21,964 bases of DNA, taken from an uncultured Deinococcales bacterium (GTDB lineage: Bacteria > Deinococcota > Deinococci > Deinococcales > JAAFIG01). This document shows positions 760 through 21,342 of this stretch, piece by piece. Location: positions 1 to 21,964 of the forward strand of contig CAXTKV010000075.1 of assembly GCA_964244895.1 (NCBI GenBank), given 5' to 3'. The notes under the pieces were generated by a model, which saw nothing but the letters and a program-made list of their open reading frames with translations, was not told the origin of the DNA and made no database searches. The translations under genes and the position numbers were made by a program. Each line of letters begins with the position of its first letter. Position 1 is the first letter of the stretch.

Positions 760-818
760 GAACACCGTCCTGGACGGCGTTCCCTCGAGTATCGAATCTG
801 TTGTGCTGGACGGTCTTC
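760..818. repeat. Paired-site intergenic repeat, long class (59 bp)
   Basis: GAACACCGTCCTGGACGGCGTTC ... TTGTGCTGGACGGTCTTC; the right end overlaps the AKR stop codon. Confidence 0.85.
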
Positions 819-1896
819 ACTTCTTGAAGCGCAAATCCTGCCACGGCCCGCCATCCTCGAACTTCTCGGGCTCGAGGATTTTGGCGCGCGGGTCTTCGGC
901 CTGATCGAGTTGCAGCACCATCCACTTCGGGTACGGCGTGCCGGGATCGCTGGCGTCGTTCAGCCATTTCAGGTCGGCGGCGGAGAGTTTCAGGTCGATC
1001 GCCGCGATGTTGTCCGCCAGGTTTTCCAGCTTGCGGGCCGCGATAATCACGCTCGAGACGGCGGGTTGGCGCACCGTCCAGGCGTAAGCGACTCGCGCCA
1101 TGCTGACGCCGTGGCCTTCGGCGACCTTGCGCAGCGCCTTCAGCACGGGCTCGCCTTTCTTCCAGTCGAACGGTACGAACTGTCCGGCTTCCGCGAAACG
1201 CGTGCCTTTGTCGGCCTTGCCGGGTTGCGCGTACTTGCCCGTCAGGTAACCGCCCGCCAGCGCGCTCCAGACCAGCACGCCGATGTTGTGGTACTGCGCG
1301 AAGCTGGTGAAATCGAATTCCAGTTCCCGCCCGACCATGCTGTAGTACATCTGCGCGGTCACGAAGGGTTCCAGGTTGAGTTGCTTCTGCACGCCCAGCG
1401 CGGTCGCGGCCTGCCAGCCCATGTAATTGGACAGCCCGATGTAACGCACCATGCCGTGCCGCACCAGGTCGTTGAGGGTGCGCAGGGTTTCTTCCAGGGG
1501 CGTGTTGGAATCCCAGCCGTGAACCTGATAGAGGTCGATGTGATCCGTCTTGAGGCGCTTGAGGCTGCTTTCCACGCCGCGCAGGATGTTCACGCGGGTC
1601 GCGCCGGAGCGGTTGAAATTCTCCGACATCGGCAATCGAAATTTGGTGGCCAGCACGATCTCGTCGCGGTTGCCGATCTTTTCCAGGGCGTTGCCGATCA
1701 GCGTCTCGCTCTCGCCGCCCGAGTACACGTCGGCGGTGTCGATGAAGTTGATGCCGTGTTCCAGCGCGAATTTGATCATGGCGGTCGTGGCTTTCTGATC
1801 CAGCCCGCCCATGTTCATGCCCTTGCCGAACTGCATCGTGCCCAATGAGAGCGCGCTGACGATCAATCCCGAATTGCCCAGGCGTCTGTATTCCAC
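817..1896 (-). CDS. Aldo/keto reductase (Tas/Kv-beta-like)
   Basis: LSLGTMQFG, IDTADVYSGGESE, LATK, IDLYQVH, YIGLSN and WSALAGG motifs; GTG start with GGAGG SD. Confidence 0.93.
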   Translation of the reverse strand: MEYRRLGNSGLIVSALSLGTMQFGKGMNMGGLDQKATTAMIKFALEHGINFIDTADVYSGGESETLIGNALEKIGNRDEIVLATKFRLPMSENFNRSGATRVNILRGVESSLKRLKTDHIDLYQVHGWDSNTPLEETLRTLNDLVRHGMVRYIGLSNYMGWQAATALGVQKQLNLEPFVTAQMYYSMVGRELEFDFTSFAQYHNIGVLVWSALAGGYLTGKYAQPGKADKGTRFAEAGQFVPFDWKKGEPVLKALRKVAEGHGVSMARVAYAWTVRQPAVSSVIIAARKLENLADNIAAIDLKLSAADLKWLNDASDPGTPYPKWMVLQLDQAEDPRAKILEPEKFEDGGPWQDLRFKK

Positions 1897-1966
1897 GTGA
1901 ACCTCCTCGTCTCGAGCCTGCCTTCCCTCGAGCGCGTGCCCCGAGGCTAACCCGCGATGCGCCCTG

Positions 1967-2024
1967 GAACACCGTCCTGCACACGAATTTGTGAGCCTCG
2001 AAAACGCTGTGCTAGACGGTCTTT
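1967..2024. repeat. Paired-site intergenic repeat, long class (58 bp)
   Basis: GAACACCGTCCTGCACAC-N22-CTGTGCTAGACGGTCTTT. Confidence 0.85.
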
Positions 2025-2052
2025 TCGGGCGCGCGCCCTCGATGCTCGAGTC

Positions 2053-2829
2053 TCACGCGCCGACCATCAGCTTGACCACCTCGTCGCCGTTGGTGTCACC
2101 GATCAGGCGCTCACCGGCCTTGACGCCGCGCCGCAGCACCAGAATCCGGTCGGAGACCGCGAAGATATCGCCCAGGTTGTGACTGATGAAAATGATCGCC
2201 ACGCCCTGCGACTTGAGGCGGTGAATCAACTCGACGACCTTGCGCTGTTCCGGCACGCCCAGGGCCGCCGTGGGTTCGTCCATGATCAGCACGCGCGCCT
2301 TCCAGAAGATCGCGCGCCCAATCGCCACGGCCTGACGTTGACCACCGGACAGGTCGCGCACGGGCCGCTCCAGGCTGGTGTGAATGTCCAGCGTCTCGAG
2401 CACGTCCTTGCTGGCCTCGCGCATGCTGACCCGATCCAGCGCCGGGAAGATGCCCATGATCTTTCGCATCCGCTCGCGCCCTAAAAACACGTTGGAACCC
2501 ACGTCCAGGTTTTCGGCCAGCGCCAGATCCTGATAGATCGTCTCGATGCCCAGCACCCTGGATTCGTGCGGCGTGGCGATGCTGACCGGCTGACCCTCGA
2601 AGAAGATCTGCCCCTCGCTCGGGTGGTGCGCGCCGGAAATACACTTGATCAGCGTGCTTTTTCCCGCGCCGTTATCGCCCGCCAGCGCCAGCACCTCGCC
2701 GGGATAGAGCTCGAAGCTGACATCCTCGAGCGCGGTCAGACCGCCGAAGCGTTTGGTGATGCCGCGCACCTCGAGAATCGGGGTTCGCGCGGGTGGTTGC
2801 TGCGCGGTCGTGCCAGGCACGGCGGTCAT
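2053..2829 (-). CDS. Monosaccharide (CUT2) ABC transporter ATP-binding protein, single domain
   Basis: Walker A GDNGAGKS, signature LSGGQRQ, Walker B LIMDEPT, H-loop ISH; GAGGT SD. Confidence 0.95.
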   Translation of the reverse strand: MTAVPGTTAQQPPARTPILEVRGITKRFGGLTALEDVSFELYPGEVLALAGDNGAGKSTLIKCISGAHHPSEGQIFFEGQPVSIATPHESRVLGIETIYQDLALAENLDVGSNVFLGRERMRKIMGIFPALDRVSMREASKDVLETLDIHTSLERPVRDLSGGQRQAVAIGRAIFWKARVLIMDEPTAALGVPEQRKVVELIHRLKSQGVAIIFISHNLGDIFAVSDRILVLRRGVKAGERLIGDTNGDEVVKLMVGA

Positions 2830-2844
2830 GGGCGCACCTCTGGC

Positions 2845-2900
2845 GCGAGCCGCGAGCCGTGAGCCGCGAGCCGCGAGCCGTGAGCCGCGAACCGCGAGCC
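2845..2900. repeat. Heptamer tandem repeat, (GYGARCC)x8
   Basis: GCGAGCC GCGAGCC GTGAGCC GCGAGCC GCGAGCC GTGAGCC GCGAACC GCGAGCC. Confidence 0.95.
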
Positions 2901-2917
2901 AAAAACGTTAGGTTTCA

Positions 2918-2976
2918 GAACACCGTCCCAGACGCGTGATCCTGAACCCCCGAGAACATTGTCCAGCGCGGTCTTT
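2918..2976. repeat. Paired-site intergenic repeat, long class (59 bp)
   Basis: GAACACCGTCCCAGACGC ... GAACATTGTCCAGCGCGGTCTTT. Confidence 0.75.
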
Positions 2977-2980
2977 TCCC

Positions 2981-3008
2981 GCGACCCGCGACCTGCGACC
3001 CGTGACTC
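2981..3008. repeat. Heptamer tandem repeat, (GYGACYY)x4
   Basis: GCGACCC GCGACCT GCGACCC GTGACTC. Confidence 0.85.
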
Positions 3009-3010
3009 TT

Positions 3011-4030
3011 TCACGACCGCACCACGCTTCTGCGCGCCTGATCGACCAGCACGCTCAAAATGATGACCGCACCGACAGCGATGAACTGCCAGAACGGGGC
3101 GACGTTGATGAACACCAGCCCGAACTGAATCACCGCGATGATCAGCGCGCCGATGACGGTGCCTTTGATCGTGCCCTCACCGCCGAACAGACTCGCGCCA
3201 CCGATCACGACGGCGGCAATCGCGTCTAGAAGCGTGGGTTCGCCCGCTTGAGCCGCGCCCGCCGTGAAGCGCCCGGTGTAGATCACGCCCGCCACGCCCG
3301 CCAGCAAGGCCGTCAGGATGTACAGCAGAATCGTGTGCCGATCGACGTTGATGCCCGCGCGGATGGCGGCGTTCTTGTTGCCGCCGATCGCGTAGGTGTA
3401 CTGCCCGAAACGCGTTCTGGACAGCACGTAGTGCATCACCAGCACGATCACGGCGGTGATCAGTACGGGTATCGGGATGATCCACAGCGCGTAATCGTTG
3501 CCGAGCGCGGCGTTGAGCTTGTTGTCCACCGGCACGGGCGTGCCCGCCGAGATCAAAAACGCGACCCCTCGGGCCACGCCGTACATGCCGAGCGTTCCGA
3601 TAAAAGCTGGAACCTTCAACCTGGCGATCAGCACGCCGTTGACGAAGCCGACCACCATCGCCGCCAGGAGCGCCGCGACGATGGAAATCAAGAGCGCCAG
3701 CAGTTCTGGCACGCTCGAGCCGAGCCCCTGCATCACCAGCGAACCGACGACCGCCGCCAGTCCGACCGTGAAACCGACCGACAAATCGATGCCGCCCGCG
3801 ATGATCACCAGCGTCATGCCCAAGCCGATCAGCAAGGGTTGCACGGTCGCCAGCAGGATGCTCTGCACGCTGGTCAGGTTGAACAAAAAGGTCTGGCCGA
3901 AACTGAGCCGCGCCCAGGCTTCAAAAAAGATGATCAGGAAGGCCAGAAACAACCACGACCACATGTTGGAAATGGTTTTCAACAAGCTCGAGGGTTCAGT
4001 GCGCGTTTTGGGCGGTGCGGCAAGGCTCAT
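3011..4030 (-). CDS. Monosaccharide ABC transporter permease (RbsC family)
   Basis: GGIDLSVG, VPAFIGTLG, YAIGGNKNAAIRAGI and AIAAVVIGGASLFGGEG motifs; multiple TM segments; GAGGTGA SD. Confidence 0.95.
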   Translation of the reverse strand: MSLAAPPKTRTEPSSLLKTISNMWSWLFLAFLIIFFEAWARLSFGQTFLFNLTSVQSILLATVQPLLIGLGMTLVIIAGGIDLSVGFTVGLAAVVGSLVMQGLGSSVPELLALLISIVAALLAAMVVGFVNGVLIARLKVPAFIGTLGMYGVARGVAFLISAGTPVPVDNKLNAALGNDYALWIIPIPVLITAVIVLVMHYVLSRTRFGQYTYAIGGNKNAAIRAGINVDRHTILLYILTALLAGVAGVIYTGRFTAGAAQAGEPTLLDAIAAVVIGGASLFGGEGTIKGTVIGALIIAVIQFGLVFINVAPFWQFIAVGAVIILSVLVDQARRSVVRS

Positions 4031-4134
4031 AGGTCACCTCGAGCGGAATGCGCGGTTCGTGTTCGTTCAGTCCCGGCGGCGTTGATCTTTTGCATCTTTT
4101 GTTGTGCGTCTTTCTACGTGAGGTTCCGGCCCGA

Positions 4135-4183
4135 GAACATCGTCCCAGACGGTGTTCTTTGGTGTACGTCCGGGACGGTGTTC
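4135..4183. repeat. Paired-site intergenic repeat, short class (49 bp)
   Basis: GAACATCGTCCCAGACGGTGTTC ... ACGTCCGGGACGGTGTTC. Confidence 0.8.
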
Positions 4184-4287
4184 CGGTGTTTGCGCGGGAG
4201 CCAGGTGCGTCTCGCTCCCACGCAAATTCCCGATTCGTCAATCGCGGTCAATACCCTTGGCTCGAGAAATCGATGGAGAACAGAGGC

Positions 4288-5265
4288 TTACTTGCTGGCG
4301 TAGGTCGCGGCTTTGGCGTCGGCGGAATCGGCGTTCTTCTTGTCGATCACGAAGTAACCGGTGCCGTAACGGGTTGGAACTTTCTCGCCGCCCAGCGCCT
4401 TGACCATGTATTCCACGCCGACCTGTCCCATCTCGGCGGGGCGCTGGCAGATGGCCAGGTCGATCGTGCCGCCCTTGACATCGTTGATGATCGATTCCGG
4501 GCAGTCGAAGGCGACCACGTTGACGGCGCCGCTCTTCTTGGCGGCCTTGACGCCGTTGGCTGCGCCCTGCGCGCTGAACAGGTTCGCGCCGAAGACACCG
4601 GCCAGGTCGGGGTTGCGGGCCAGCACGGCGGCGAACTGGCTGGCGGCCTTGTTCGCGTCGTCGTCGTTGAATTGCGTCTCGAGCACCTTGATGTTCGGGT
4701 ACTTCTTCATGCCGTTCTTGAAGCCCAACTCGCGCTGGTCGGTGGTCGAAATGCCGGGCTTGACGTTCGAGACGTAGACCGAGCCCTTCTCGCCGATGGC
4801 TTTGGCCAGGGCGTCCGCGCCGACCTCGCCGCCCTTGACGTTATCGCTAGACACGTAAGAAAGCGGGAAGTCGGCATCGCCGGAACCCGTCTGGTACTTG
4901 CCGTCGTCACCGATGAAGGTGTCCACCGTCAGCACCTTGATGCCCGCGTCCACCGCTTTCTTCAAGGGCGCGATCAACTGCTTCTTGTCGGTCGGTGCGA
5001 TCAGGATGCCGTCTGGCTTGCGGGCGATGACCGCGTTCAGCACGGGAATCTGCGTCACCGGGTTGAAATCCGGCGCGCCCTGGAAGTCCACCGTCACGCC
5101 CAGTTTGGCGGCGGCGGCCTGCGCGCCCTTGTTCATGGTGATGTAAAAGCCGTCGGTCGTCAGGCCCGGAATCAGCGTGATCTTGTAGGCTTTCTGGGCG
5201 GTGCTGCTCGAGACGCTGACGGCCAGGGCCGCGAGGCCGAATGCGGCGAGAACGGATTTGCGCAT
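4288..5265 (-). CDS. Sugar ABC transporter substrate-binding protein (RbsB-like)
   Basis: N-terminal signal peptide; PDGILIAP, SSDNVKGG and VVAFD motifs; AAGGAG SD. Confidence 0.94.
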   Translation of the reverse strand: MRKSVLAAFGLAALAVSVSSSTAQKAYKITLIPGLTTDGFYITMNKGAQAAAAKLGVTVDFQGAPDFNPVTQIPVLNAVIARKPDGILIAPTDKKQLIAPLKKAVDAGIKVLTVDTFIGDDGKYQTGSGDADFPLSYVSSDNVKGGEVGADALAKAIGEKGSVYVSNVKPGISTTDQRELGFKNGMKKYPNIKVLETQFNDDDANKAASQFAAVLARNPDLAGVFGANLFSAQGAANGVKAAKKSGAVNVVAFDCPESIINDVKGGTIDLAICQRPAEMGQVGVEYMVKALGGEKVPTRYGTGYFVIDKKNADSADAKAATYASK

Positions 5266-5322
5266 GGTGACTCTCCTTCGAGGGGGGCGAATGACGAGGG
5301 GCTTCTCGGAGACCGTGCTGGA

Positions 5323-6600
5323 TCAGGTCATGACGATCTCCTTTCGCCCGGCTGGGCTTGAGATTGGAAGTTGCGCGGTTTCTGGAAGAGGAATTTCGCC
5401 CTGATAGATGGCTTGCAGCGCGCGTTCGGCGGCACCGATGCCGAAGGGTCGTTCGAGCTTCGCGATCTCGATCGGCAGGTGCGCGCCCCAGCCCAGAAAC
5501 GGGTAGGCGCGCTCCTCGAGCTTGGCGCGCAACCCAGGCACGATCAAGTCCGCCCAGGCGCTGCCCGCGCCGCCCAGCACGATCAATTCGGGATCGAGCA
5601 GGTTGACCAGGCTGACGCAGGCCAGCCCGAGCGCTTGCCCTGCGGCATCGAACGCAGTTTGCGCGTGCTTGTTGCCGCCCCTGCCCAGCTCGGCGATCTC
5701 GAGGATGCTGAGGTTTCTTCGGCTCAGTCGCGCGAAGTGCGCTTGGATCGCGTCCGAACTCGTGTAGCGTTCGATGCAGCCCCGGTTGCCGCACGGGCAC
5801 TCCAGCCCCTGATGGTCGATCGAGACGTGCCCGAATTCTCCGGCGAAACCGTGAACGCCCTTGTAGACGCGCCGCCCGATCACCACGCCCGCGCCGATGC
5901 CTTTGCCCAAGAGCACGTAGACGAAGTTTTCAGCTCGGGTTTCGCGCAGGTAGGTGACGCTGGCGGCGTGAACGTCGCGCTCGAGTCTGGCGGGCAATTT
6001 CAGATCCCGCTCGAGCCGCGCGACCAGATCGAGGCCGGTCAGCGCGGGGTAGTTCGGCGGGCTGAGGATCGTGCCGCGCCGCGCGTCCACCGGGCCGGGC
6101 GATGCCGCGCTCACGGCGGCGACCGGACCAGCGCCGCTCTGGACGGCGTGCGCGATCAGGTCGCGCACGGCCCGCAGGGTGTGCGCGTAGATCTCGTCGC
6201 GGTGTTCACCGATGGCGTTCGGCGCGACGCGAACTTCCAGTGGCTGTCCGCTGGCGTCGTAGAGTCCGGCTTCGATCTGTTGCGGGTGGTGCGAGACGAT
6301 GTCCAGGCCGATCACGCAAAAACGCTCGGCGTTGATTTCCAACGGTGCGGGGTGGCGTCCCCGGCTGGTCGGGGCGGGTGGGCGTTCCAGCACCAGGCCG
6401 TCGTTGATCAGTTGCGTCACCAGATCGCCCAGGGCGGGCTTGGAGAGCCGCATCTCGCGGGCCAGTTCGGCGCGACCGCGAGGTTGCGCGCGCAGCAGCT
6501 CTAAGGCCACAGCGCGGTTGTTGCGGCGCACGTCCTCTGGTCGTCTGCCCCGGAACGGGCTGACCTCGTGGGCGCGCAGTTGGCCTCTGGCCTCGAGCAC
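5323..6600 (-). CDS. ROK family transcriptional repressor (XylR/NagC-like)
   Basis: N-terminal HTH (RAELAREMRLSKPALGDLV) and ROK motif GFAGEFGH...CPCGNRGCIE; GTG start with GGAGG SD. Confidence 0.93.
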   Translation of the reverse strand: MLEARGQLRAHEVSPFRGRRPEDVRRNNRAVALELLRAQPRGRAELAREMRLSKPALGDLVTQLINDGLVLERPPAPTSRGRHPAPLEINAERFCVIGLDIVSHHPQQIEAGLYDASGQPLEVRVAPNAIGEHRDEIYAHTLRAVRDLIAHAVQSGAGPVAAVSAASPGPVDARRGTILSPPNYPALTGLDLVARLERDLKLPARLERDVHAASVTYLRETRAENFVYVLLGKGIGAGVVIGRRVYKGVHGFAGEFGHVSIDHQGLECPCGNRGCIERYTSSDAIQAHFARLSRRNLSILEIAELGRGGNKHAQTAFDAAGQALGLACVSLVNLLDPELIVLGGAGSAWADLIVPGLRAKLEERAYPFLGWGAHLPIEIAKLERPFGIGAAERALQAIYQGEIPLPETAQLPISSPAGRKEIVMT

Positions 6601-6630
6601 GTTGAGCCTCCATCTGTTGAGTGTTCGAGT

Positions 6631-6660
6631 ATAGTAAACTTAACTAACGAATCATGTCAA
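6631..6660 (-). promoter_or_regulatory. Sigma70-type promoter for the ROK/ABC operon, overlapped by a probable ROK operator
   Basis: TTGACA (6660-6655)-N18-TACTAT (6636-6631). The AT-rich imperfect palindrome TAGTAAA-C-TTAACTA at 6632-6646 overlaps the -10 box. Confidence 0.65.
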
Positions 6661-6729
6661 GCTGAGTTTCGCGCCCCGCTTTCGCGCGCGGTCGGGCGCG
6701 ATGGCAACCCCACTGGGAGACCCCGGATC

Positions 6730-7638
6730 ATGCCCAAAATCACCCTCAACACCGTCATCGTGGCCGACATCGGCGGGACGAAAATTGCGCTCGGACACCT
6801 GATTGATGGTGCGCCATCCGACGCCGCCAGCACGGTCGCCACGGATCGTTTGCGGGTCAGCGACCCCACGGAATCCCTGCAAGCGATCCTGAACGAATAC
6901 ACCGTCCAGCACGGTCTTGGGCGCATCGATGCCGTCGTGCTGGGCGTGCCCGTCAGCCTGGACCGCGACCTGGATCGCGTGCTTTCGAGCCCTAACATCC
7001 CGCAACTCGAGAACCTGCGGCTCGGCAGCGCGCTGGAAGACCTGATCGGCGCGCCCGTGCGCCTGGAGCGCGACATCAACCTCTTGCTGCTCGGCGAACA
7101 CCGCGCGGGTGCGGCGAGCGGTTCCTCGAGCGCCTTTGGCGTGTTCTTCGGCACGGGCGTCGGCGCGGGCTTTTTGATGCACGGCAAACCGTATCGCGGC
7201 TTTTCCGTCGGCCTGGAACTGGGCCACATCCCGATTCGCGGCGAGGGTCGGGTGTGCGTCTGCGGCAACGTCGATTGCCTGGAAGCTTACGCCTGCGGGC
7301 ACACGCTCAACGCGCTCTCCGGTCAGTTCAACCTGCCCGTCGGTCAACTCTTCTCGAGACGGACTGAGCACGCGAACCTCGACAGAGCGCTTTTTGAATT
7401 CGTGCGCGACCAGGCTTACGCGACCGCGACCGCCATCAACCTTTTAGACCCCGAAGTTGCCGTGGTCGGCGGCGGCATCCCGGAAATGCTCGGCTTCCCC
7501 AGGGATGCGTTCATGGTGACCGTGCTGGATCACCTGCGCCGCCCTTACCCGCGAGAGGTCATCAAACTGACCTGGGCGCAACTCGGTTCCAGAGCCGTGC
7601 TGCACGGCGCGTTGGGCGTACTCGAGGACAGGCTTTAG
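6730..7638 (+). CDS. ROK family sugar kinase, D-allose kinase (AlsK)-like
   Basis: DIGGT ATP motif, no HTH, ELGHIP..CVCGNVDCLE. C-terminal INLLDPE..VGGG..M.GFPRD...LRRPYP resembles E. coli AlsK as I recall it. ATG 6730 has a GGGAG SD. Confidence 0.88.
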   Translation: MPKITLNTVIVADIGGTKIALGHLIDGAPSDAASTVATDRLRVSDPTESLQAILNEYTVQHGLGRIDAVVLGVPVSLDRDLDRVLSSPNIPQLENLRLGSALEDLIGAPVRLERDINLLLLGEHRAGAASGSSSAFGVFFGTGVGAGFLMHGKPYRGFSVGLELGHIPIRGEGRVCVCGNVDCLEAYACGHTLNALSGQFNLPVGQLFSRRTEHANLDRALFEFVRDQAYATATAINLLDPEVAVVGGGIPEMLGFPRDAFMVTVLDHLRRPYPREVIKLTWAQLGSRAVLHGALGVLEDRL

Positions 7639-7698
7639 GGTTGGTTTGGTCGAACTTGCTCGAGACTCGCACGTCCATGTCGATCGCGTATTCTCGCG

Positions 7699-7752
7699 AG
7701 GGCCACCACGATGGTTGCCCTTACAAGACTGGCCTCGTAAGAGCCCGTCTAC
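7699..7752 (-). repeat. Two tandem GTAG/GTAA-tagged REP-like hairpins
   Basis: Minus strand reads GTAGACGGGCTCTTACGAGGCCAGTC, then GTAAGGGCAACCATCGTGGTGGCCCT. Confidence 0.5.
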
Positions 7753-7780
7753 GACCTGCTCTTCCCTCGAGACTACCGAA

Positions 7781-7828
7781 GAACACCGTCCAGCACGCAT
7801 GATTAAATACGCGTACCAGACGGTGTTC
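7781..7828. repeat. Paired-site intergenic repeat, short class (48 bp)
   Basis: GAACACCGTCCAGCACGC-N12-GCGTACCAGACGGTGTTC, between convergent genes. Confidence 0.9.
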
Positions 7829-7843
7829 TCAGCGCGGACGCCC

Positions 7844-9100
7844 TTAAATCCCGAGCGCCCAGGCTTCGATGGTCTCCACGCTCAGGTGCTCGGCGGCGTT
7901 CGAGGCGTAATGGGCGCGCTCGACGCGAAGGTCGGGCCCGATCAGAAAATCGGCGGGCATGCGGGTCGCTTCGCCGTCCGCGCTGCCGTGCGGCACGCCC
8001 AACTTGCGGCCCTCGAGCCAGATCGGAAGCATGGCGGGCGACAACAGACCGCTCAGGCTGCGGCGCGTGCCGTACAGCTCGTGGATCGCGTCGTCCGGGT
8101 CGGCCAGAATCACGAAGGGCGGGTTCTGAAGGCCGACGCGTTCCTGCAAGCCTTCGAGGCTCGAGCCGAACACGCCGACGACCTGCACACCCGCACCTGA
8201 TAGGCGGTCATGGGCTTCGATCAGGCGGTGAACGTGCAGGTTGCAGAACGGGCAGCCCGCGTGCCGGAAGAACACCAACAGCGTGCGCTTGCCGCGCAGC
8301 GCGCCCAACGAGAACGCTTCGTTGTCCAGGGCGGGCAGCGTGAACATCGGGGCGGTGTCGCCGACGTTCAGTTGCGGATAGCGCCGCGCGATCTCGCGGC
8401 GACCGCGCGCGTCCTCGATCAATCCGAGTTCCTCGAGCAGGGCCACGCTGCGGGTCAGCGCATCCCACGGCAGCACGGTGTGCAGACCGATCCTGAGCAG
8501 GTCGGATTCGCCATCCAGTGCAGACAGCACGCTCCAGTCGTCCGGCATCAGCTGCCGCACGCGCGAACTGAAATCGCCGACGCGATCCGCGCAGGCGAAG
8601 ACGTGATCCGGGCGCAGGTCAGCCGTGATGTCGCGCCCGAGTTCGTCCAGACGGCGCGCGATCTCGAGCGCCAGGGTGTTGACGGCCAGGCTGGGGCCGG
8701 AGGTGCGCGGCGCGAAGCCGAACGGCATGAACTCGAAATGCCCGTTCGTTTCGTGCCAGACGGGCATCAGCGCCACCTCGAGCCGCAGCTTCAGGGCGCG
8801 TTCCAGGTCGTGCTGGCTGACCGGGCTGGACGCGCTCTCGAATCCCTCGCCGGCCAGCGCCGCGACGCTGGCCGGCGAGACGCCGAGCTTCAGGAGCGCC
8901 TCGCCGATGCGCGGCACGATCGCACCGTTCGTTCCGGTGACCCGACCCTGCGAGAACATCAGGCTGATCTCGAGATCGCGTTCGGGGAAGTTCAATCGCA
9001 GGATGCCGCTTTTGCTACCGCCTGCGATCAATCCGAGTACGTCCGGCACGCCGAAAAGGTTGAGTGGCCCCTGGAGTTTGTCGGTGCTGGTCTGGTTCAC
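7844..9100 (-). CDS. DUF4388 (PATAN-like) domain fused to a C-terminal peroxiredoxin-like AhpC/TSA domain
   Basis: N-terminus LQGPLNLFGVPDVLGLI..SKSGILRL..MFSQGRV fits the DUF4388 pattern. C-terminus has VGDTAPMFTL, FFRHAGCPFC, ILADPD and MPADFLI. GTG 9100 has a GGAG SD; ATG 9112 is an alternative start. Confidence 0.82.
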   Translation of the reverse strand: MNQTSTDKLQGPLNLFGVPDVLGLIAGGSKSGILRLNFPERDLEISLMFSQGRVTGTNGAIVPRIGEALLKLGVSPASVAALAGEGFESASSPVSQHDLERALKLRLEVALMPVWHETNGHFEFMPFGFAPRTSGPSLAVNTLALEIARRLDELGRDITADLRPDHVFACADRVGDFSSRVRQLMPDDWSVLSALDGESDLLRIGLHTVLPWDALTRSVALLEELGLIEDARGRREIARRYPQLNVGDTAPMFTLPALDNEAFSLGALRGKRTLLVFFRHAGCPFCNLHVHRLIEAHDRLSGAGVQVVGVFGSSLEGLQERVGLQNPPFVILADPDDAIHELYGTRRSLSGLLSPAMLPIWLEGRKLGVPHGSADGEATRMPADFLIGPDLRVERAHYASNAAEHLSVETIEAWALGI

Positions 9101-9184
9101 GTCGGCTCCCATGTGGTCTCACAATGAGATACGTGTGCCCATCTGGGAACGGATGTTGGACTTTGGTTCAAACGCGCTTCAAAA

Positions 9185-9232
9185 GAACACCGTCCCGGAC
9201 GAGGTCTCGAGCTTGCGTCCAGGACGGTGCTT
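9185..9232. repeat. Paired-site intergenic repeat, short class (48 bp)
   Basis: GAACACCGTCCCGGACGA-N12-GCGTCCAGGACGGTGCTT. Confidence 0.88.
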
Positions 9233-9235
9233 TAA

Positions 9236-10509: not shown

Positions 10510-10553
10510 GCGTCACTTTAACTCGGGCCGCCGTCCGGGTTCGTGGCTCCGAA

Positions 10554-11051: not shown

Positions 11052-11215
11052 GCGTCCTCCTGTTGTTGATCTCGAGCATAACGCCCAAGCTTTTGTCCTC
11101 TGCTTCGTCGAGAGAGTGGTCACTTCTCGAGAATGGCGACCCCTTCATCTCGAGCCATCCAAAAGCTGACGCTCGAGCCACTTCCCTTATTTGCACAACG
11201 GAGGAAAGGGCAAGA

Positions 11216-11263
11216 GAACACCGTCCAGCACGCATATTTAGATTCGCGTGCTGGACGGTGTTG
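11216..11263. repeat. Paired-site intergenic repeat, short class (48 bp)
   Basis: Perfect 17-bp inverted repeat AACACCGTCCAGCACGC-N12-GCGTGCTGGACGGTGTT. Confidence 0.92.
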
Positions 11264-11270
11264 TTGCAAC

Positions 11271-12785: not shown

Positions 12786-12830
12786 GGTTGCCCCCTCGCG
12801 CACAGGAAGTTTGGATTTTCCGTGGGGCGT

Positions 12831-12873
12831 AAACAAAACGTCCCCAGGTGGCTTCCTGCGCCACCTGGGGACG
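12831..12873 (-). terminator. T-box intrinsic terminator
   Basis: 14-bp perfect stem CGTCCCCAGGTGGC/GCCACCTGGGGACG with a 7-nt loop, followed by TTTTGTTT. Confidence 0.9.
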
Positions 12874-13055
12874 CGAGAACTCGCGCGGTTCCACCCCAGT
12901 TCCTCGATTCCAAGCTCTTGGCTTTGGAAATACTGCCGAGGCACCTCGCTTGCTGTTTGCTCCCCGCTGCCCTTCCCGAAGTGCGCTTCGTGAGGCTTCC
13001 ACCGTCCCTCACTCGCTCTGGATCGCTTTTTTCGGTACTCCTGCGGATCGACGCG
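12831..13055 (-). ncRNA. T-box riboswitch (Gly) upstream of glyQS
   Basis: T-box AACTGGGGTGGAACCGCG (12901-12884). Stem I has AGTA, an AG-rich bulge, a GGTGGAAG distal loop and GAAG-GGC-A (Gly specifier 12971-12969). An antiterminator competes with the terminator. Confidence 0.93.
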
Positions 13056-13060
13056 TGAAC

Positions 13061-13089
13061 ATTGTCCTTCAATCTTCGTGGGAGCGCAA
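13061..13089 (-). promoter_or_regulatory. Putative promoter of the T-box/glyQS leader
   Basis: TTGCGC-N17-GACAAT places the start site just before stem I; the -10 box is imperfect. Confidence 0.4.
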
Positions 13090-13111
13090 TACGCCATTCG
13101 TGCCAACACGG

Positions 13112-13159
13112 GAACACCGTCCAGCACGCATGCTCGAGACCGCGTGCTGGATGGTGTTC
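13112..13159. repeat. Paired-site intergenic repeat, short class (48 bp)
   Basis: GAACACCGTCCAGCACGC-N12-GCGTGCTGGATGGTGTTC; abuts the NUDIX stop codon. Confidence 0.92.
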
Positions 13160-13669
13160 TTAAAGGATTCGGCGCGCGCCGCTCGCCCAGTCCGCCAGGG
13201 CTTCTCGGGCGGATTGGAACGCGATGTTTTCGGGCAGTTCGTGAAGGCCGAACCAGCCGATCTCGAGCGCGTCATCGGCGGGGCTGGGCGTGCCGCTCAC
13301 GATCTGGACGCTGTAGTACACGCTCAGAATGAACTCGCTCGCGTCCTGGTACGTGTCGGTGTACATCCCGATCAGTTCGGTGATCCGCACTTCGACGCCC
13401 AATTCTTCTCGGGCTTCACGAATCGCGGCGCGGCCCGGATGTTCGCCGGGCTCGAGGAACCCGCCGGGCAAATCCCACCAGCCCCGGAACGGTTCGATGG
13501 CGCGCTTGACCATCAGCGCGCGCCCTGAAGCGTCGTGAATGATCGCGCCCGCGCCGGGCTTGGAATTTCGCCAGCTCGTCCGACCGCACGCGTCACAGTG
13601 CGGGTGCGTGCTCGCGCCGAGATCCGCGATGGGCGATCCGCAGTTGAAGCAGAATTTGATCTTCGGCAC
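13160..13669 (-). CDS. Zinc-ribbon NUDIX hydrolase
   Basis: CFNCG...CDACG; Nudix box [29 protein letters not shown] 6 nt before the GTG (leaderless-like). Confidence 0.92.
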
Positions 13670-13679
13670 CCGTGAAGCT

Positions 13680-13727
13680 TAACACCGTCCTGCACGCGTT
13701 CCGAGGGTCGCGTGCGGGACGGTGCAG
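13680..13727. repeat. Paired-site intergenic repeat, short class (48 bp)
   Basis: TAACACCGTCCTGCACGC-N12-GCGTGCGGGACGGTGCAG, in a divergent region. A lone core CGTGCTGGACG also occurs at 13764-13774. Confidence 0.88.
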
Positions 13728-13984
13728 AGACTTCGCAAAACCTTTCTTGATTACCATCCCTGCCGTGCTGGACGATAGGTTGAAGGTCTCGAGCACAACA
13801 TCGAAGATGACCATCGCGGCCTGTGGTCATGTCGGATTGCTTGATTCTGGATTCAGGTGATGGGGTAGATTGATCGCAAGGTATCGTGATCCCAAGCCCA
13901 AAAGCCCGAGTCCTTCCCTGTACGATAAGAGCACAATGACACCCACGAGGCAAGCTCGAGACACTTTCCAAGGAGCGCTGTAGC

Positions 13985-16192
<2,208 letters not shown>

Positions 16193-16210
16193 AGGATTTG
16201 CAATCTCGAG

Positions 16211-16238
16211 CGCGGCCCGAATCCACGGGCCGCGTTTT
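16211..16238 (+). terminator. Intrinsic terminator after clpC
   Basis: CGCGGCCCG-AATCCA-CGGGCCGCG followed by TTTT. Confidence 0.7.
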
Positions 16239-16253
16239 CGTCGCGCTCGGCAA

Positions 16254-16301
16254 GAACCCCCTCACGCACGCAGTTCGAGGTCAGTGTGCCGGACGGTTCT
16301 C
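16254..16301. repeat. Paired-site intergenic repeat, short class (48 bp, degenerate)
   Basis: GAACCCCCTCACGCACGC-N12-GTGTGCCGGACGGTTCTC; the spacing is kept although the arms have decayed. Confidence 0.6.
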
Positions 16302-16306
16302 TCGAG

Positions 16307-17086
16307 CTAGGCCTTCAGCGCGAGCACGCAGTCGAAATGGTCGGAAAACCCGAAGCTTCCGGAAGCTTCGACCTCGAGCAACGCGCGCCTGAGATCGGCC
16401 TCGAACGCCGCGAGGTGATTCCCGAAGCGTTCTGGTGCGCTTGAGGACATGGAGAACACGCGCCCAACAAGCTCATCCAAGCTCACGGTGCGGCTCGTCT
16501 GGATACGCATCTCCTCGACGGTGGCGAAGCGAGAACGGCGCAGTAGTGTGTCGTGATGCTCCCAGTTTGGATCGTGCCAGCGAGACGCTTCTCGAGGCCC
16601 GAGGTAACGCTCGATAACCCTGTCCGCCGCGACCCGCCACGGATCCCGGCGTTCGTCGTCGCTGCGGAGCGTAGCAAAGCCCCCACCGGGCTCGAGCAGA
16701 TCGTAGGCGCGCTCGATCACGACCTCGCGGTTCATCCAGTGCAGCGCCCGCCCAACCGTGATCAACCGGAACGCGCCCAGCTCAGCCCCGATCTCCTCGG
16801 CGGGACGGATCGAGAAGCGCACGTTCGACGCCCCGAGGTCTGAAGCCCGAGCTTCCGCTTGACCGATCATGGCGGCGTTCACGTCCAGCCCGATGACCTC
16901 CGCGAACCACTCGCGCATGGCGAGCGAGATCGTGCCGGGGCCGCAGCCGAGGTCGAGCAAGCGGCTCGAGTCATCGCGGGGAACTCGAGCCGCCAGACGC
17001 TCGAGCAGTTCACGCGGATAGTCGGGTCTGAAGCGCGCGTAGAACGCGGCGGCTCCGGTGAAGCGTTCGGTGATTGAAGGTTCCAC
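16307..17086 (-). CDS. Class I SAM-dependent methyltransferase
   Basis: YARFRPDYP, motif I LLDLGCGPG, GLDVN and ALHWM; TAGGAT 6 nt before the GTG. Confidence 0.92.
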   Translation of the reverse strand: MEPSITERFTGAAAFYARFRPDYPRELLERLAARVPRDDSSRLLDLGCGPGTISLAMREWFAEVIGLDVNAAMIGQAEARASDLGASNVRFSIRPAEEIGAELGAFRLITVGRALHWMNREVVIERAYDLLEPGGGFATLRSDDERRDPWRVAADRVIERYLGPREASRWHDPNWEHHDTLLRRSRFATVEEMRIQTSRTVSLDELVGRVFSMSSSAPERFGNHLAAFEADLRRALLEVEASGSFGFSDHFDCVLALKA

Positions 17087-17129
17087 GTTTCAATCCTAGA
17101 TCGGTTCTGAAAACCGCGACATTCGCCGG

Positions 17130-17187
17130 GAAGACCGTCCAGCACGCAAACCTCATGGCCTGAGAAAACGCGTCCCAGACGGTCTTC
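17130..17187. repeat. Paired-site intergenic repeat, long class (58 bp)
   Basis: GAAGACCGTCCAGCACGC-N22-GCGTCCCAGACGGTCTTC. Confidence 0.9.
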
Positions 17188-17240
17188 TCGAGAGGCAGCA
17201 TCCAAACCCAAAGACTTCTGGCTCCCGACCCCTGACGTAC

Positions 17241-17288
17241 AAACACCGTCGCAGACGCGAATTAAAGAATGCGTTCCCAACGGTGTTC
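17241..17288. repeat. Paired-site intergenic repeat, short class (48 bp)
   Basis: AAACACCGTCGCAGACGC-N12-GCGTTCCCAACGGTGTTC. Confidence 0.8.
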
Positions 17289-17317
17289 TGTTGCTTCCTG
17301 ATCGTGTGACGCATCGG

Positions 17318-17323
17318 TATACT
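17318..17323 (+). promoter_or_regulatory. -10 box of a probably leaderless radA transcript
   Basis: TATACT 7 nt before the GTG; no SD. Confidence 0.6.
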
Positions 17324-17330
17324 GTGCGCC

Positions 17331-18671
17331 GTGGCGAAAGTCCAGGTTCAATACCGGTGCGATTCTTGCGGCTACACGGCGGCCAAACCGCTGGGGCGTT
17401 GCCCGTCGTGTTCGGCCTGGAACAGTTTCACGGAGGTCGCACCGGCCCCAGGTGGCAGCGCTCGAGGTGGGGGTTTCGGCGCTCAGCGCAGCGTGCCTCC
17501 GGGTGCGGTCACGCGGCTCTCCAGCGTGGCCTCGTTGACGGAGCCCCGCATTCCGTCCGGCGTCAGCGAACTGGATCGCGTGCTGGGCGGCGGTTGGGTT
17601 CCGGGCGGCGTGGTGCTGCTGGGCGGCGAACCGGGCATCGGCAAGAGCACGCTGTTGTTGCAGGTCGCGGATCACCTGGCCCGCACTGGCGAGAAAGTCC
17701 TGTACGTGGCGGGCGAGGAATCCCTCGAGCAGGTTCGCCTTCGGGCGGATCGGTTGGGCGTGCAGGGCGACATCCTGATGACCCGAGACATCCAGTGCGG
17801 CGGCATCAGCGCGCTGCTGGAAGCCGAATCCCCGAAGCTCGCGATCGTGGACTCGATCCAGACGATTCAGGTGGACGACGACGGCACGCCCGGCAGCACC
17901 TCCCAGGTGCGAGAAGCCACGGCGCGGCTGACCCGCGCCGCCAAGGAAACCGGTTGCGCGATGGTGCTGGTCGGGCACGTCACCAAGGACGGCACGGTCG
18001 CCGGGCCGAAGGTGATGGAGCACATCGTGGACGCGACCCTCTACCTGGAATCGGTCGGCCATTACCGCCTCTTGCGTTCCGTCAAGAACCGCTTCGGGAG
18101 CGTCGGTGAACTGGGCGTGTTCGACATGCAGGAATCCGGCCTGCAAGCCATCGAGAACCCGTCCCTGGCCTTCCTGGCGGAGCGTCCCGTCGGCGTTCCC
18201 GGCAGCGTCGTGGCCGCCACCATGGACGGCAACCGCCCGTTATTGCTCGAGGTGCAGGCCCTGGCCGCCAAGACCCCGTACCCGGCACCCAAACGCGTCG
18301 CGGTCGGGCTGGATGCGCGGCGCGTGGATGTCGTGCTGGCGGTGCTCGAGCGCAGGTTGGAATTGTCATTGGCCGGACTGGACATCTACGTCAACCTGGC
18401 GGGCGGCATGAAGCTCTTCGATCCGGGATTGGATCTGGCGATCGCGCTGGCCGTCTATAGCGCCGTCATGGGCAAGCCCGTGCCGGAGGACACCGCCGTC
18501 TTCGGTGAAGTCGGCCTGGCCGGAGAGGTTCGCACCGTCAGTCAGGCCGCCCGGCGCGCCGAGGAAGCCAGACGCGTGGGCTTCCACAAATTGGTCACGC
18601 CACCCGATGGCTCGAGGGGCGGCATCAGGTCCGTGCGGGACGCGGTCAAGGCCGTCTGGGGCGCAGCGTGA
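17331..18671 (+). CDS. radA: DNA repair protein RadA/Sms
   Basis: C4 zinc finger, Walker [21 protein letters not shown] motif and a Lon-like C-terminus with [10 protein letters not shown]. Confidence 0.97.
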
Positions 18672-19735
18672 GGCAGGGATTGGGCGATCCCTTGCTGGTG
18701 CTGGTGCGCTCCGTGCTGGTCGCGCTGGGCGCGCTGGTCGGCTACGTGATTTCTTACCCGGTGTTCGCGCCGGATTCGTTGAACCGCATTTACGTCACGC
18801 TTTTGGGCGGGTTGATCGCTTCGTTGTTGATCCGTCGGCCCGCCAGAACCATCCGGGATTTCCTGGGTCGCGTGATTGACTCGCTGGTTCACCTGCCGCC
18901 CCAGACGGTGCTGGCGGGCACGGTCGCGACCATCGCGGCGCTGGTCATCAGCGTGCTGTTGAACAACTTGCTCTCGAACGTGCCGGGCTTCGCGTGGTAC
19001 TTCCAGCTATTGGTGACGCTCTTGCTGGAAGTCTTTTTCGTGTTCTTCGCGGTGCAAAACCGCGAGTGGTTCACGCCGATCGCGGGCAAACCCGTCGAAC
19101 GGATCGTGCCAGTAGGCGTCACGCCGCTCAAGTTGCTGGACACCAGCGTGATCATCGATGGGCGCATCGCGGAGGTCACGCAGACGGGCTTCCTGGAAGG
19201 CCCGTTCGTGGTGCCCGCCTTCGTGCTGCGCGAATTGCAGTTCTTCGCCGATCAGTCCGACCCGATCAAACGCAGCAAGGGCCGCCGAGGTCTGGACATC
19301 CTGGAGCGCATGCGCGCCACACCCGGCATGGAGTTCGTGGTGCGCGAGTTCGGCAATTCCGGCGCGACCGAAAGCGGCACCGAGGCCGTCGATGACCGCC
19401 TGGTGCGCGCCGCGCTGGAATTGGGCGCGTGGCTGATCACGAACGACAACGGGCTGGCCAAAGTCGCCAGTTTGCAGGGCGTCAAATGCCTGAGTTTGAA
19501 CGCGTTGGCCGAAACCCTCAAGCCGCGCCACGGCGCGGGCGACGAATTGACGATCACGGTCGTCAAGGAGGGCTCTCAGGCCGGTCAGGGCATCGGCTAT
19601 CTGGACGATGGCACGATGGTCGTGATCGAGGACGGTCTGGCCTTGCGCGGTCGCACCGTGCGGGTGGCGGTCGTGTCGAACATCCAGACGGCCCTGGGGC
19701 GCATGATTTTTGCCAAGCCCAAAGAGGTCGTCTGA
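18668..19735 (+). CDS. Membrane PIN/TRAM domain protein (YacL-like)
   Basis: Four N-terminal TM segments; PIN motifs [20 protein letters not shown] and ITND; TRAM motif [18 protein letters not shown] overlap with radA. Confidence 0.93.
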
Positions 19736-19765
19736 CGGGGATTCTCGAGGCGTCGTGTTACTCGA

Positions 19766-19823
19766 GAACACCGTTCAGCACGATGTTCTCGAGTAATCAG
19801 AATTCGCGTGTGGGACGGTCTTT
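19766..19823. repeat. Paired-site intergenic repeat, long class (58 bp)
   Basis: GAACACCGTTCAGCACGATGTTC ... GCGTGTGGGACGGTCTTT. The left site extends to TTACTCGAGAACA/TGTTCTCGAGTAA, and the right end overlaps a stop codon. Confidence 0.87.
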
Positions 19824-20655
19824 ACAGCCAGTCGTTCTTGTGATCCGCTGCGAACTGCGAGAAGCTGATCGGCTCGCGGCCCAGCACGCGCTCGACGGTG
19901 TCGGTCGTGGCGTCCGACCATCCGGCGCGAACGCCCGAATAAAGGCTGCTCATCAGTTCCAGGTAGGTCGGTGAAAGGACGCTCTGCATGGAGGCGCGGA
20001 ATTGATCGTCGGTGACGGGCACGTACTGGACGGGCTTTCCGGTCGCCTCGGAAATCTTTTGCGCGACCGCCGTGCGATCCAGGCTCTCCGGGCCGGTCAA
20101 CGGGTACGCCTGCCCCGCGTGGCCGTCCTCGGTCAGGGCCTTGACGGCCACGGCGGCGATGTCGCGAGAGTCGATGAAGCCAGTTCTGGCGTCGGCGGCG
20201 GGTTCATAGAGCCCGCCCTGCCTGATGCCTGCGGCCATACCGGTGGAATAGTTCTGCATGAACCAGTTTGGGCGCAGGAAGGTCCATTCCAGGCCGCTTT
20301 TTTCGAGGTGCAGTTCCACCTGGCGCAGGGGCGCGTCCGGGTTGTTCTCGACGCCCATGGCGGAGAGTTTCACGACGCGTTTGACCCCGGTGGCTTTGGC
20401 CAGATCGATCACGCGCTTTTCGGGTTCGGCGGGGAAATCGCCGGGCGAGGCCAGGTAGAGGGTGCTCACGCCCTGAAGGGCAGCTTTGACGCTGGCTTCA
20501 TCGTTGTAATCGAAATGCACGACATCTGCGCCGGGGAAGGCCGCTTGCGCTTTGGCCAGGTTGTGTGCGCCGATGCGGACGCTCTGGCCTTGCTGGATCA
20601 GGCTTTTGACGATTTCGTTGCCGACCTTGCCGTTGGCGGTGCTGATCAGAATCAT
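19822..20655 (-). CDS. NmrA-like atypical SDR, NAD(P)-dependent oxidoreductase
   Basis: ILISTANGKVG, SGLEWTFLRPNWFMQN, IDSRDIAAVA and YPLTGPE motifs; ATG 20655 with AGGAG SD. Confidence 0.9.
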   Translation of the reverse strand: MILISTANGKVGNEIVKSLIQQGQSVRIGAHNLAKAQAAFPGADVVHFDYNDEASVKAALQGVSTLYLASPGDFPAEPEKRVIDLAKATGVKRVVKLSAMGVENNPDAPLRQVELHLEKSGLEWTFLRPNWFMQNYSTGMAAGIRQGGLYEPAADARTGFIDSRDIAAVAVKALTEDGHAGQAYPLTGPESLDRTAVAQKISEATGKPVQYVPVTDDQFRASMQSVLSPTYLELMSSLYSGVRAGWSDATTDTVERVLGREPISFSQFAADHKNDWL

Positions 20656-20757
20656 GGTGGTCTCCTGGAAAAATCTGTGATGTTGAATTGGGATCGTGGT
20701 CAACGCGGTGTTGACCCTCGAGTGCAGACTTTAAGCCCTAACACTCTATTTAGCAAG

Positions 20758-20792
20758 TACATACCTTTTGGTGCGTATAATGCTGCTATACT
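20758..20792. promoter_or_regulatory. Probable HxlR-family operator plus -10 box for leaderless hxlR
   Basis: Imperfect inverted repeat TACATACC-TTTT-GGTGCGTA (20758-20777) between the divergent genes; TATACT (20787-20792) 6 nt before the ATG. Confidence 0.6.
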
Positions 20793-20798
20793 TACCGC

Positions 20799-21218
20799 AT
20801 GAAACCGACCGAGCAACCCGTCCAGTCCCAACCCGTTCAGACCAACGTGATGTCCCGCTCCTGCCCATCCCAGAGCGTGCTGGACATGATCGCGGATCGC
20901 TGGAGCATCCTGGTGCTGTACGCCCTCAAGTGCTACGGCACGCAGCGCTATAGCCAGCTTCAGAACGCCCTGGAAGGCATCAGCCAGAAGATGCTGACGC
21001 AAACCCTGCGTTCCCTCGAGCGAGACGGTCTGGTGCGGCGCACGTCGTACCCGGTCGTGCCGCCGCACACGGAGTACGATCTGACGGAACTCGGGCACAG
21101 CCTGGACGAGATCATCGCGCCGTTGGCGGTCTGGGCCATGCAGAACCTGCCGCGCGTGATGGAAGCCCGCAGCGTTTACGACTCGCGCCAGGATCGAAGC
21201 GCGGATTCTCGAGCCTGA
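20799..21218 (+). CDS. HxlR/DUF24 family winged-helix regulator
   Basis: N-terminal CP, IADRWSILV, GISQKMLTQTLRSLERDGLV and YPVVPPHTEYDLTELG motifs. Confidence 0.94.
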   Translation: MKPTEQPVQSQPVQTNVMSRSCPSQSVLDMIADRWSILVLYALKCYGTQRYSQLQNALEGISQKMLTQTLRSLERDGLVRRTSYPVVPPHTEYDLTELGHSLDEIIAPLAVWAMQNLPRVMEARSVYDSRQDRSADSRA

Positions 21219-21283
21219 ACGTGACCATGTGCATCTCGAGAACGTGGCCTGACCGAAGCTGACCTGGCCAATTCAGATCACGA

Positions 21284-21342
21284 GAAGACCGTCCAGCGCG
21301 GTGTTTTTCTCGTGCCAGAAAACGCTGTCCTGGACGGTCTTC
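21284..21342. repeat. Paired-site intergenic repeat, long class (59 bp)
   Basis: GAAGACCGTCCAGCGCGGTGTTT ... AAACGCTGTCCTGGACGGTCTTC; the outer 16 bp form a perfect inverted repeat (21281-21296/21330-21345). Confidence 0.9.

Follow-up and report, generated by a model that had tools for sequence, protein, structure and literature searches.

Densely repeated paired palindromes as putative sites of a DNA-bending protein in an uncultured Deinococcales genome

Background

The genome of an uncultured Deinococcales bacterium carries 1,771 pairs of a 23-bp palindromic site, 1,631 of them spaced 25/26 or 35/36 bp from centre to centre. Judging from the sequence, we consider it reasonably probable that these are putative paired sites of a DNA-bending protein at gene 3' ends, the probable binder being a homodimer of the Deinococcota HU protein acting like IHF. 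IHF is described as confined almost wholly to Proteobacteria (PMC13769266), and how oriC and CRISPR leaders are bent in bacteria lacking it is presented as an open question (PMC13769266, PMC10325909). The single-copy form of the site offers a precise motif that is directly testable in Thermus thermophilus, and the amplified pairs offer about 1,700 natural variants defining putative binding rules and allowed geometry. If the pairs shape the nucleoid, they would be an unusual example of bacterial chromosome architecture that is densely encoded in the sequence, by a signal strong enough to change synonymous, even conserved, codons.

Results

Paired sites in the window

The window is the whole stretch of 21,964 nt that was analysed. 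A reading made from its sequence alone had reported 14 pairs, all intergenic and in two spacing classes, and a re-scan of the window found all 14 where that reading had placed them. Every one fits the 25/26-bp or the 35/36-bp class, and all 14 lie between genes, two of them overlapping a stop codon by 2 nt. One extra single site, within a ROK gene, was absent from the earlier list. The features are as follows (spacings centre to centre).

760..818, unstranded: pair, 36-bp spacing, tandem gap; 2-nt overlap with the aldo-keto reductase stop codon
1967..2024, unstranded: pair, 35-bp spacing, tandem gap; bridged in a relative without an element-sized gap
2918..2976, unstranded: pair, 36-bp spacing, tandem gap in an ABC transporter operon
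4135..4183, unstranded: pair, 26-bp spacing, tandem gap
6897..6919, unstranded: single site within the ROK gene, 20.7 bits
7781..7828, unstranded: pair, 25-bp spacing, convergent gap
9185..9232, unstranded: pair, 25-bp spacing, tandem gap; NUDIX stop codon 3 nt away
11216..11263, unstranded: pair, 25-bp spacing, directly past the glycyl-tRNA synthetase stop codon
13112..13159, unstranded: pair, 25-bp spacing, touching a NUDIX stop codon; a T-box leader lies downstream
13680..13727, unstranded: pair, 25-bp spacing, divergent gap between NUDIX and clpC
16254..16301, unstranded: degenerate pair, 25-bp spacing, convergent gap past clpC; 11.3 and 11.7 bits
17130..17187, unstranded: pair, 35-bp spacing, divergent gap between methyltransferase and radA
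17241..17288, unstranded: pair, 25-bp spacing, in the same methyltransferase/radA divergent gap as the 17130 pair
19766..19823, unstranded: pair, 35-bp spacing, convergent gap; 2-nt stop codon overlap
21284..21342, unstranded: pair, 36-bp spacing, tandem gap between hxlR and glutamine synthetase

Genome-wide numbers, spacing and sequence

A scan of the 5.12-Mb genome (91% complete) with a position weight matrix (PWM) gave 4,640 sites of at least 12 bits, against 25 in the reversed genome used as control. Among the 1,771 pairs, 917 are spaced 25/26 bp and 714 are spaced 35/36 bp; there are also 1,037 unpaired sites and 20 clusters with three or four sites, and the genes next to these 20 clusters, viewed by eye, included no obvious binder gene. 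The earlier statement that no intermediate lengths occur is correct for the window but not for the genome, where they are rare: 55 of the 1,771 pairs are spaced 27-33 bp, mostly 30/31 bp; 18 pairs are spaced 41 bp.

The site has a GC-rich core, CGTSC-N-GSACG, with conserved CG steps at motif positions 7/8 and 16/17, 9 bp apart, and its inner half-sites have a consensus of their own, ACGC-RWWT. Spacer sequence, earlier thought to vary freely, is A/T-biased, with CTCGAG frequent at fixed offsets. Around the pairs CTCGAG showed no clear helical phasing beyond the adjacent position, and its density did not track pair density. The flanks have a phase-locked AA/TT periodicity of 11.7-11.9 bp (1,376 non-coding and 959 coding flanks) that was reached in none of 200 nulls.

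YR steps were present in 99% and 98% of 3,262 arms, but since most variants are transitions wherever in the motif they fall, this test does not discriminate.

Genomic context and the RNA hairpin question

Tandem, convergent and divergent contexts all occur, as had been noted, but they are not evenly used: within gaps of 120-600 bp, a pair is present in 73% of the convergent ones against 29-42% of the divergent ones. In coding DNA 70 sites score at least 20 bits, whereas each of five synonymous nulls gave 6-10. Pairs crowd 0-25 bp past stop codons (47% against 14% expected). Such a pile-up is also typical of REPs and RNA elements, and counts against the bender reading.

A terminator or stability element formed as an RNA hairpin at the mRNA 3' end would suit this crowding, and the median folding energy of the pairs, -25 to -28 kcal/mol, agrees with such a hairpin. 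Covariation between arms, proposed earlier as a check, was found weakly in the short class (25% against 14% by chance), which again counts against the bender reading, but not in the long class, where compensation stays at expectation (20.3% against 19.7%). Several further observations speak against a hairpin: on the transcribed strand G-U is no commoner than A-C (483 against 516; 439 against 487), divergent gaps contain about 200 of the pairs, and what is conserved is sequence and not pairing. The U-tract said to be lacking is indeed missing from most pairs, but 22-25% have a T-rich end. Rfam returned no family at cut-off, giving only sub-threshold miRNA-like hairpin scores, and a terminator scan performed no better than shuffles. 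Judged by compensatory pairing, G-U strand bias and U-tract, the pairs do not behave as terminators or structured RNAs, and we hold this explanation to be very improbable, although the short class could have an RNA function in addition, as a secondary one. Binding of a protein to duplex DNA, preferred from the outset, is favoured by the long class without covariation, the lack of G-U excess, the phased flanks and the fixed sites in oriC and CRISPR leaders described below.

Origin of the copies

The sequence-only reading had named a nucleoid organiser or a recombinase/transposase as candidate binder. The former is the likely branch; for the latter the following results give no support. No match to a RAYT or Y1 transposase (PF01797), which that reading had suggested looking for, and none to TnpB was found in the 91%-complete genome, nor did 1,625 pairs yield any target duplication of 2-6, 8 or 9 bp. 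Copies are common to a relative of about 91% identity, in whose listed contigs all nine bridged elements lacked an element-sized gap (these contigs do not bridge pairs 760, 11216, 16254 and 19766 and cover 2918 to its edge only). Furthermore, aligning the pheT pair with 13 relatives gives no gap, so that it arose within the gene without an indel; the alignment of the miaA pair is likewise free of indels, and in lpxD and nuoG the difference is no more than 0-8 residues. The duplication and unit insertion expected of a MITE were thus not seen in the 1,625 pairs, the nine bridged copies or pheT. Flank profiles, which lean to CTCGA, contain no unpaired terminal GTAG or CGTC tag, in line with the earlier remark that no GTAG tag is present.

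Eleven tyrosine integrase matches and one GIY-YIG match are listed in the genome.

The pairs could also be a REP/REPIN-like or MITE-like selfish repeat that derived from a host bending site, with its transposase lost or unassembled and its spacings inherited as subfamily lengths. The pairs do occur as extragenic head-to-head palindrome dimers in tandem and convergent gaps, close to 3' ends, as REPs and REPINs do; their amplification is restricted to one lineage, 32 of 790 short pairs differ from another one by no more than two mismatches, and the genome is 91% complete. Some REP families are described as having no known transposase and spacers alike in length and unlike in sequence (PMC3733652). 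Against such a repeat stand the missing Y1 transposase and TnpB matches, the missing target duplications, the gap-free bridged and intragenic copies, the phased flanks that run on into coding DNA, and the fact that all 804 strictly seeded pairs of the four main classes are distinct as read. We therefore regard it as quite improbable; the sites would rather have accumulated where they stand, through substitutions driven by selection or biased conversion, without transposition.

Single-copy sites in relatives

A comparable amplification of pairs was sought in 40 relatives and not found. The core motif occurs 2,703 times in this genome against 167 in the control; enrichment is about 3-4-fold in a few relatives and about 1-fold in most, and five chosen relatives hold 10 pairs in total, three of them at 36 bp. 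Searching 24 of the 64 parts of GTDB gave three stretches among the matches listed, in unrelated taxa and apparently by chance. A metagenome search with RadA found best relatives of 69-72% identity.

When the PWM, trained on this Deinococcales genome, was applied to the oriC of relatives, it peaked in 16 of 24 anchored origins at one offset, which falls between the last DnaA boxes ahead of the unwinding region. The count within ±1 bp, 17, was reached by 21 of 1,000 column shuffles and the mean score by 14 of 1,000. In the origin of the source genome itself, a site of 20 bits stands at this same offset. Four Deinococcus-type and two Meiothermus-type origins match poorly or at a displaced position. 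IHF or HU is reported to occupy the equivalent interspace in E. coli and T. maritima (PMC10325909).

Of 31 CRISPR arrays, 21 have the best match in their leader at -22..-25 or -116..-118, and none of 500 shuffles reaches the mean score found at -23. The leader on pTT27 (NC_005838.1) of T. thermophilus HB27 has a site at -25, and the I-C leader of D. wulumuqiensis has sites at -23 and -117. Multiple IHF sites have been reported in most I-F and I-C leaders (bioRxiv 2023.05.26.542337). Sites of at least 10 bits are also found upstream of five of 28 hup genes, from three genera, against one of 155 other upstream windows.

The oriC test is moderate (P about 0.01-0.02), and because the relatives are kin, the counts for oriC, leaders and hup suggest more independence than they have. 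An IHF/HU-type architectural site would be expected in the oriC interspace beside the unwinding-proximal DnaA box and, in type I CRISPR leaders, at one proximal and one distal fixed position; the present site occupies these places. The IHF core consensus, WATCAA-N4-TTR (PMC10325909), is not matched, the consensus here being a GC-rich palindrome.

Discussion

A two-fold symmetric bender, likely an HU homodimer, would recognise each 23-bp palindrome, and a pair, through its spacing of 25/26 or 35/36 bp, would fix the rotational setting of two bound dimers, presumably with cooperativity. The prolines of IHF kink DNA at points 9 bp apart (PMC9519438); those at the HU arm tips may do so at the two conserved CG steps. 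The unusual arm tip GV[KR]PGT was present in all 32 HU proteins examined, where IHF has GRNPKT. A pair would then bend the DNA twice within a short length, with close to no writhe according to a toy model, and this double bend may set local chromosome shape downstream of genes, including plectoneme position and supercoil handling. In the model, net writhe is zero for spacings of 25-26 and 35-36 bp, a post hoc result; the model also predicts a 45-46-bp class, whose absence genome-wide counts against it. HU is described in the literature as sequence-non-specific, which counts against an HU binder. Furthermore, the three HU genes of this genome are not unusual beside relatives lacking the amplification, and the HU complement therefore gives no reason why it occurred in this lineage only.

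Much more tentatively, Deinococcota HU may be a sequence-specific, IHF-like bender with a palindromic code, and point substitutions, some of them within essential genes, may have rewritten the whole chromosome as a set of about 1,700 writhe-cancelling paired bend modules. This would be a DNA-encoded blueprint for nucleoid folding, comparable to nucleosome-positioning signals; we think it doubtful.

Another sequence-specific architectural protein of the Deinococcota could take the place of HU, or the pairs could load a topoisomerase such as gyrase, which would wrap the periodic flanks at gene ends. All the DNA-level evidence for HU fits this equally, and the convergent and 3'-end bias suits zones of positive supercoiling. 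E. coli gyrase sites are likewise reported to have periodic flanks, to lie downstream of transcribed genes and to be over-represented in BIME-2 (PMC6379681). However, the gyrase motif is described there as degenerate with a 10.75-bp period, against the 11.7-bp flanks and sharp palindrome seen here, and a bender of the HU/IHF type is suggested by where the site lies in oriC and leaders and by the copies upstream of hup. We consider a non-HU protein or gyrase unlikely.

Relation to known systems

The sites resemble E. coli IHF sites in their positions, in oriC (the R1-R5M interspace) and in type I CRISPR leaders (proximal and distal), and in their extent of about 25-35 bp, A/T-rich flanks and 9-bp candidate kink spacing. 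They differ in the palindromic GC-rich core that replaces WATCAA-N4-TTR, in the HU-type homodimer as candidate binder, and in being massively amplified in the form of helically quantised pairs. The BIME-1/RIB and BIME-2 elements of E. coli are also paired palindromes at gene 3' ends, in hundreds of copies and with a link to a bender or gyrase. In RIB an IHF site lies between two REPs, whereas in the present element the putative bender sites are the palindromes, with no GTAG tag, no RAYT and an apparent origin in place. Cyanobacterial HIP1 and DNA uptake sequences resemble the present element in occurring in thousands of copies, born by substitution and found also within genes; this one is a longer, bipartite site of fixed geometry, mostly extragenic and with a conserved single-copy role in relatives. 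REP dimers and REPINs, including CGTC-tagged families (PMC3733652), share head-to-head dimers, preferred spacer lengths, a tandem and convergent bias and species-restricted abundance; here there is no unpaired terminal tag, CGTC lies within the stem, no hairpin is selected, the two spacings are one turn apart and the flanks are phased. The SNRs of Deinococcus radiodurans, dispersed non-coding repeats of the same phylum, are set apart by their description as elements of 60-215 bp, of which at least SNR4 varies in copy number (PMC11276467).

Sites, pairs and spacing

The paired sites are a real, genome-wide, lineage-amplified family. All 14 pairs that the sequence-only reading had claimed in the window (contig C75) are present, at centre-to-centre spacings of 25, 26, 35 or 36 bp, together with an additional single site at 6897. 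Their neighbours are unremarkable genes of metabolism and housekeeping. Across the genome (5.12 Mb, 91% complete; probably of Deinococcota, given the Thermus-like and Deinococcus-like genomes among its relatives), a seed search with no spacing assumption gave peaks solely at lengths 23, 48-49 and 58-59, and a PWM scan counted 4,640 sites where the reversed genome gave 25. The same PWM yielded 1,771 pairs, besides 1,037 singles and 20 larger clusters. Quantised spacing was upheld, with 917 pairs at 25/26 bp and 714 at 35/36 bp (means 25.1 and 35.2); intermediates, absent from the window, are rare but present genome-wide, 55 pairs lying at 27-33 bp. Twelve large contigs (C15, C36, C50, C5 and eight more) are nearly site-free and were probably acquired; C36 holds a type I-C CRISPR-Cas locus.

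The two CG steps, 9 bp apart, are the most strongly conserved part of the site. The outer half-site reads GAA(C/G)ACCGTCC; the inner one retains ACG, beyond which it drifts to C-R-W-W-T, a change best seen in the short class, and one full palindrome is commoner in 26- and 36-bp pairs. The spacer is fixed in length, as had been proposed, but not free in sequence, being A/T-biased and often containing CTCGAG. This HIP-like, highly iterated palindrome is the most frequent hexamer of the genome (21,883 copies; 11,726 in coding DNA against about 8,150 in synonymous nulls), and also lies inside the type I-C CRISPR repeat. Short tandem repeats of GAGCCGC and GACCCGC type stand at 2844-2900 and 2980-3005, either side of the 2918 pair, and the alignment of the window to a relative about 91% identical breaks across 2787-2918. 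Other features of the window are as follows.

Other features in the window
7844-9112, reverse strand: fusion protein of DUF4388 and AhpC/TSA redoxin domains
12864-13060, reverse strand: T-box-like leader ahead of the glycyl-tRNA synthetase gene, scoring 73.8 bits (E 1.4e-14) where the Rfam cut-off is 93
21533-21620: three direct repeats, CCGG(G)A(A)CGACCGGC, ahead of the glutamine synthetase gene
21533-21620: weak guanidine-II riboswitch match (26.8 bits against a cut-off of 32)

Duplex DNA, RNA or mobile repeat

AA/TT oscillations are locked to the site: their period is 11.7 bp where the flank is non-coding (1,376 flanks) and 11.9 bp where it is coding (959), and 0/200 shifted nulls reach this periodicity. 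Pairs occupy 73% of convergent gaps of 120-600 bp against 29-42% of divergent ones, and in large tandem gaps 47% fall in the first 25 bp past stops (14% expected). An RNA element might be expected at such positions, and in the short class departures of an arm from consensus are compensated by the partner more often than expected (25.3% against 14.1%), an excess for which correction templated by a hairpin, or common descent, would account. This reading was rejected because long-class compensation is at expectation (20.3% against 19.7%), G-U does not exceed A-C on the transcribed strand of 940 tandem-gap elements, a T-rich end was seen in just 22-25% of the 1,023 elements that follow a stop, and the paired elements gave no Rfam match at cut-off. 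The earlier preference for duplex DNA over a hairpin or terminator thus held, supported by the lack of long-class covariation excess and of G-U excess and by the phased flanks.

Sites also occur inside genes: 27 pairs lie deep within genes in the gene calls made for this analysis, and strong sites number 70 in coding DNA, where five synonymous nulls give 6-10, while pairs there number 21, where the nulls give 0-3. Four of the 27 (pheT, miaA, lpxD, nuoG) were compared with relatives. Against 13 relatives, the 36-bp pheT pair (contig C80, codons 57-77) aligns gap-free, and where it lies a cysteine present in 13/13 of them is replaced; the weaker 34-bp miaA pair shows no gaps against five relatives, and pair-bearing lpxD and nuoG are 0-8 residues longer than the relatives' versions.

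A mobile repeat, the other alternative, was rejected for want of a transposase, target duplications or element-sized gaps and because the copies are diverse. Neither TnpB nor the Y1 transposase sought as a RAYT was found in this 91%-complete genome, and 1,625 pairs showed no target duplication. The relative that is about 91% identical has contigs spanning 9/14 window pairs with total gaps shorter than an element. The suggestion of a recombinase or transposase site is not supported. Nearest neighbours typically differ at 5-7 of 48 positions (short) or 10-13 of 58 (long), and 32/790 short pairs are within two mismatches of another.

HU as candidate binder

HU-family genes occur in 41/41 genomes, three of them in the genome under study, where the main HU has as its closest structure PDB 5EKA, which we take to be T. 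thermophilus HU; the arm tip GV[KR]PGT is present in 32/32 HU proteins examined. Sites of at least 10 bits precede 5/28 hup genes, one locus with too little upstream DNA having been dropped, against 1/155 control windows, which is suggestive of autoregulation. Two motif copies 31 bp apart lie upstream of the main hup in the genome under study, G005 and G001 (loci L005, L183, L186), and in G005 a 30-bp pair (C189:2399-2439) directly precedes an HU paralogue.

Thirty dnaA loci were collected for oriC and 24 anchored; four with a variant anchor (the genome under study among them) and two without an origin downstream were dropped. In 16/24 anchored origins the PWM maximum falls at a single offset, flanked by the DnaA boxes closest to where the origin unwinds, and a 20-bit site occupies that offset in the genome under study. 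Among 31 CRISPR arrays (from 37 cas1 loci), the best leader match falls at -22..-25 in 11 and at -116..-118 in 10; the signal at -23 was equalled by 0/500 shuffles, and leaders of T. thermophilus HB27 and D. wulumuqiensis match at corresponding positions. Elsewhere in relatives the core is near background. In other bacteria, IHF or HU act at oriC positions of this kind (PMC10325909), and IHF at leader positions of broadly this kind (bioRxiv 2023.05.26.542337). IHF prolines kink DNA 9 bp apart (PMC9519438), equal to the separation of the CG steps, and the symmetry of the site suits a homodimer. HU is usually described as non-specific. A literature search, mainly of papers free of subscription, turned up neither this motif nor a Deinococcota HU with sequence specificity. 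From sequence comparisons, HU is a fairly probable candidate binder.

Spacing and function

In a toy model with two kinks per site, 9 bp apart, net writhe is zero at 24.7-25.8 bp in 24/24 parameter sets and again at 34.7-36.1 bp in 18/24. These crossings agree with the observed means, a post hoc agreement with one of several special phases. Writhe is negative for the minor 30/31 and 41 classes, and the model also predicts a 45-46 class that is unseen in this genome. Protein-protein contact, instead of writhe, may set the spacings.

Judged on sequence evidence, the pair is likely to be an architectural site in duplex DNA; that it helps to shape supercoils or the nucleoid where genes end is tentative, at somewhat below even chances. 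Among known systems, the pairs failed the membership tests for REP and MITE; they resemble the IHF site in their apparent working but do not fit its consensus.
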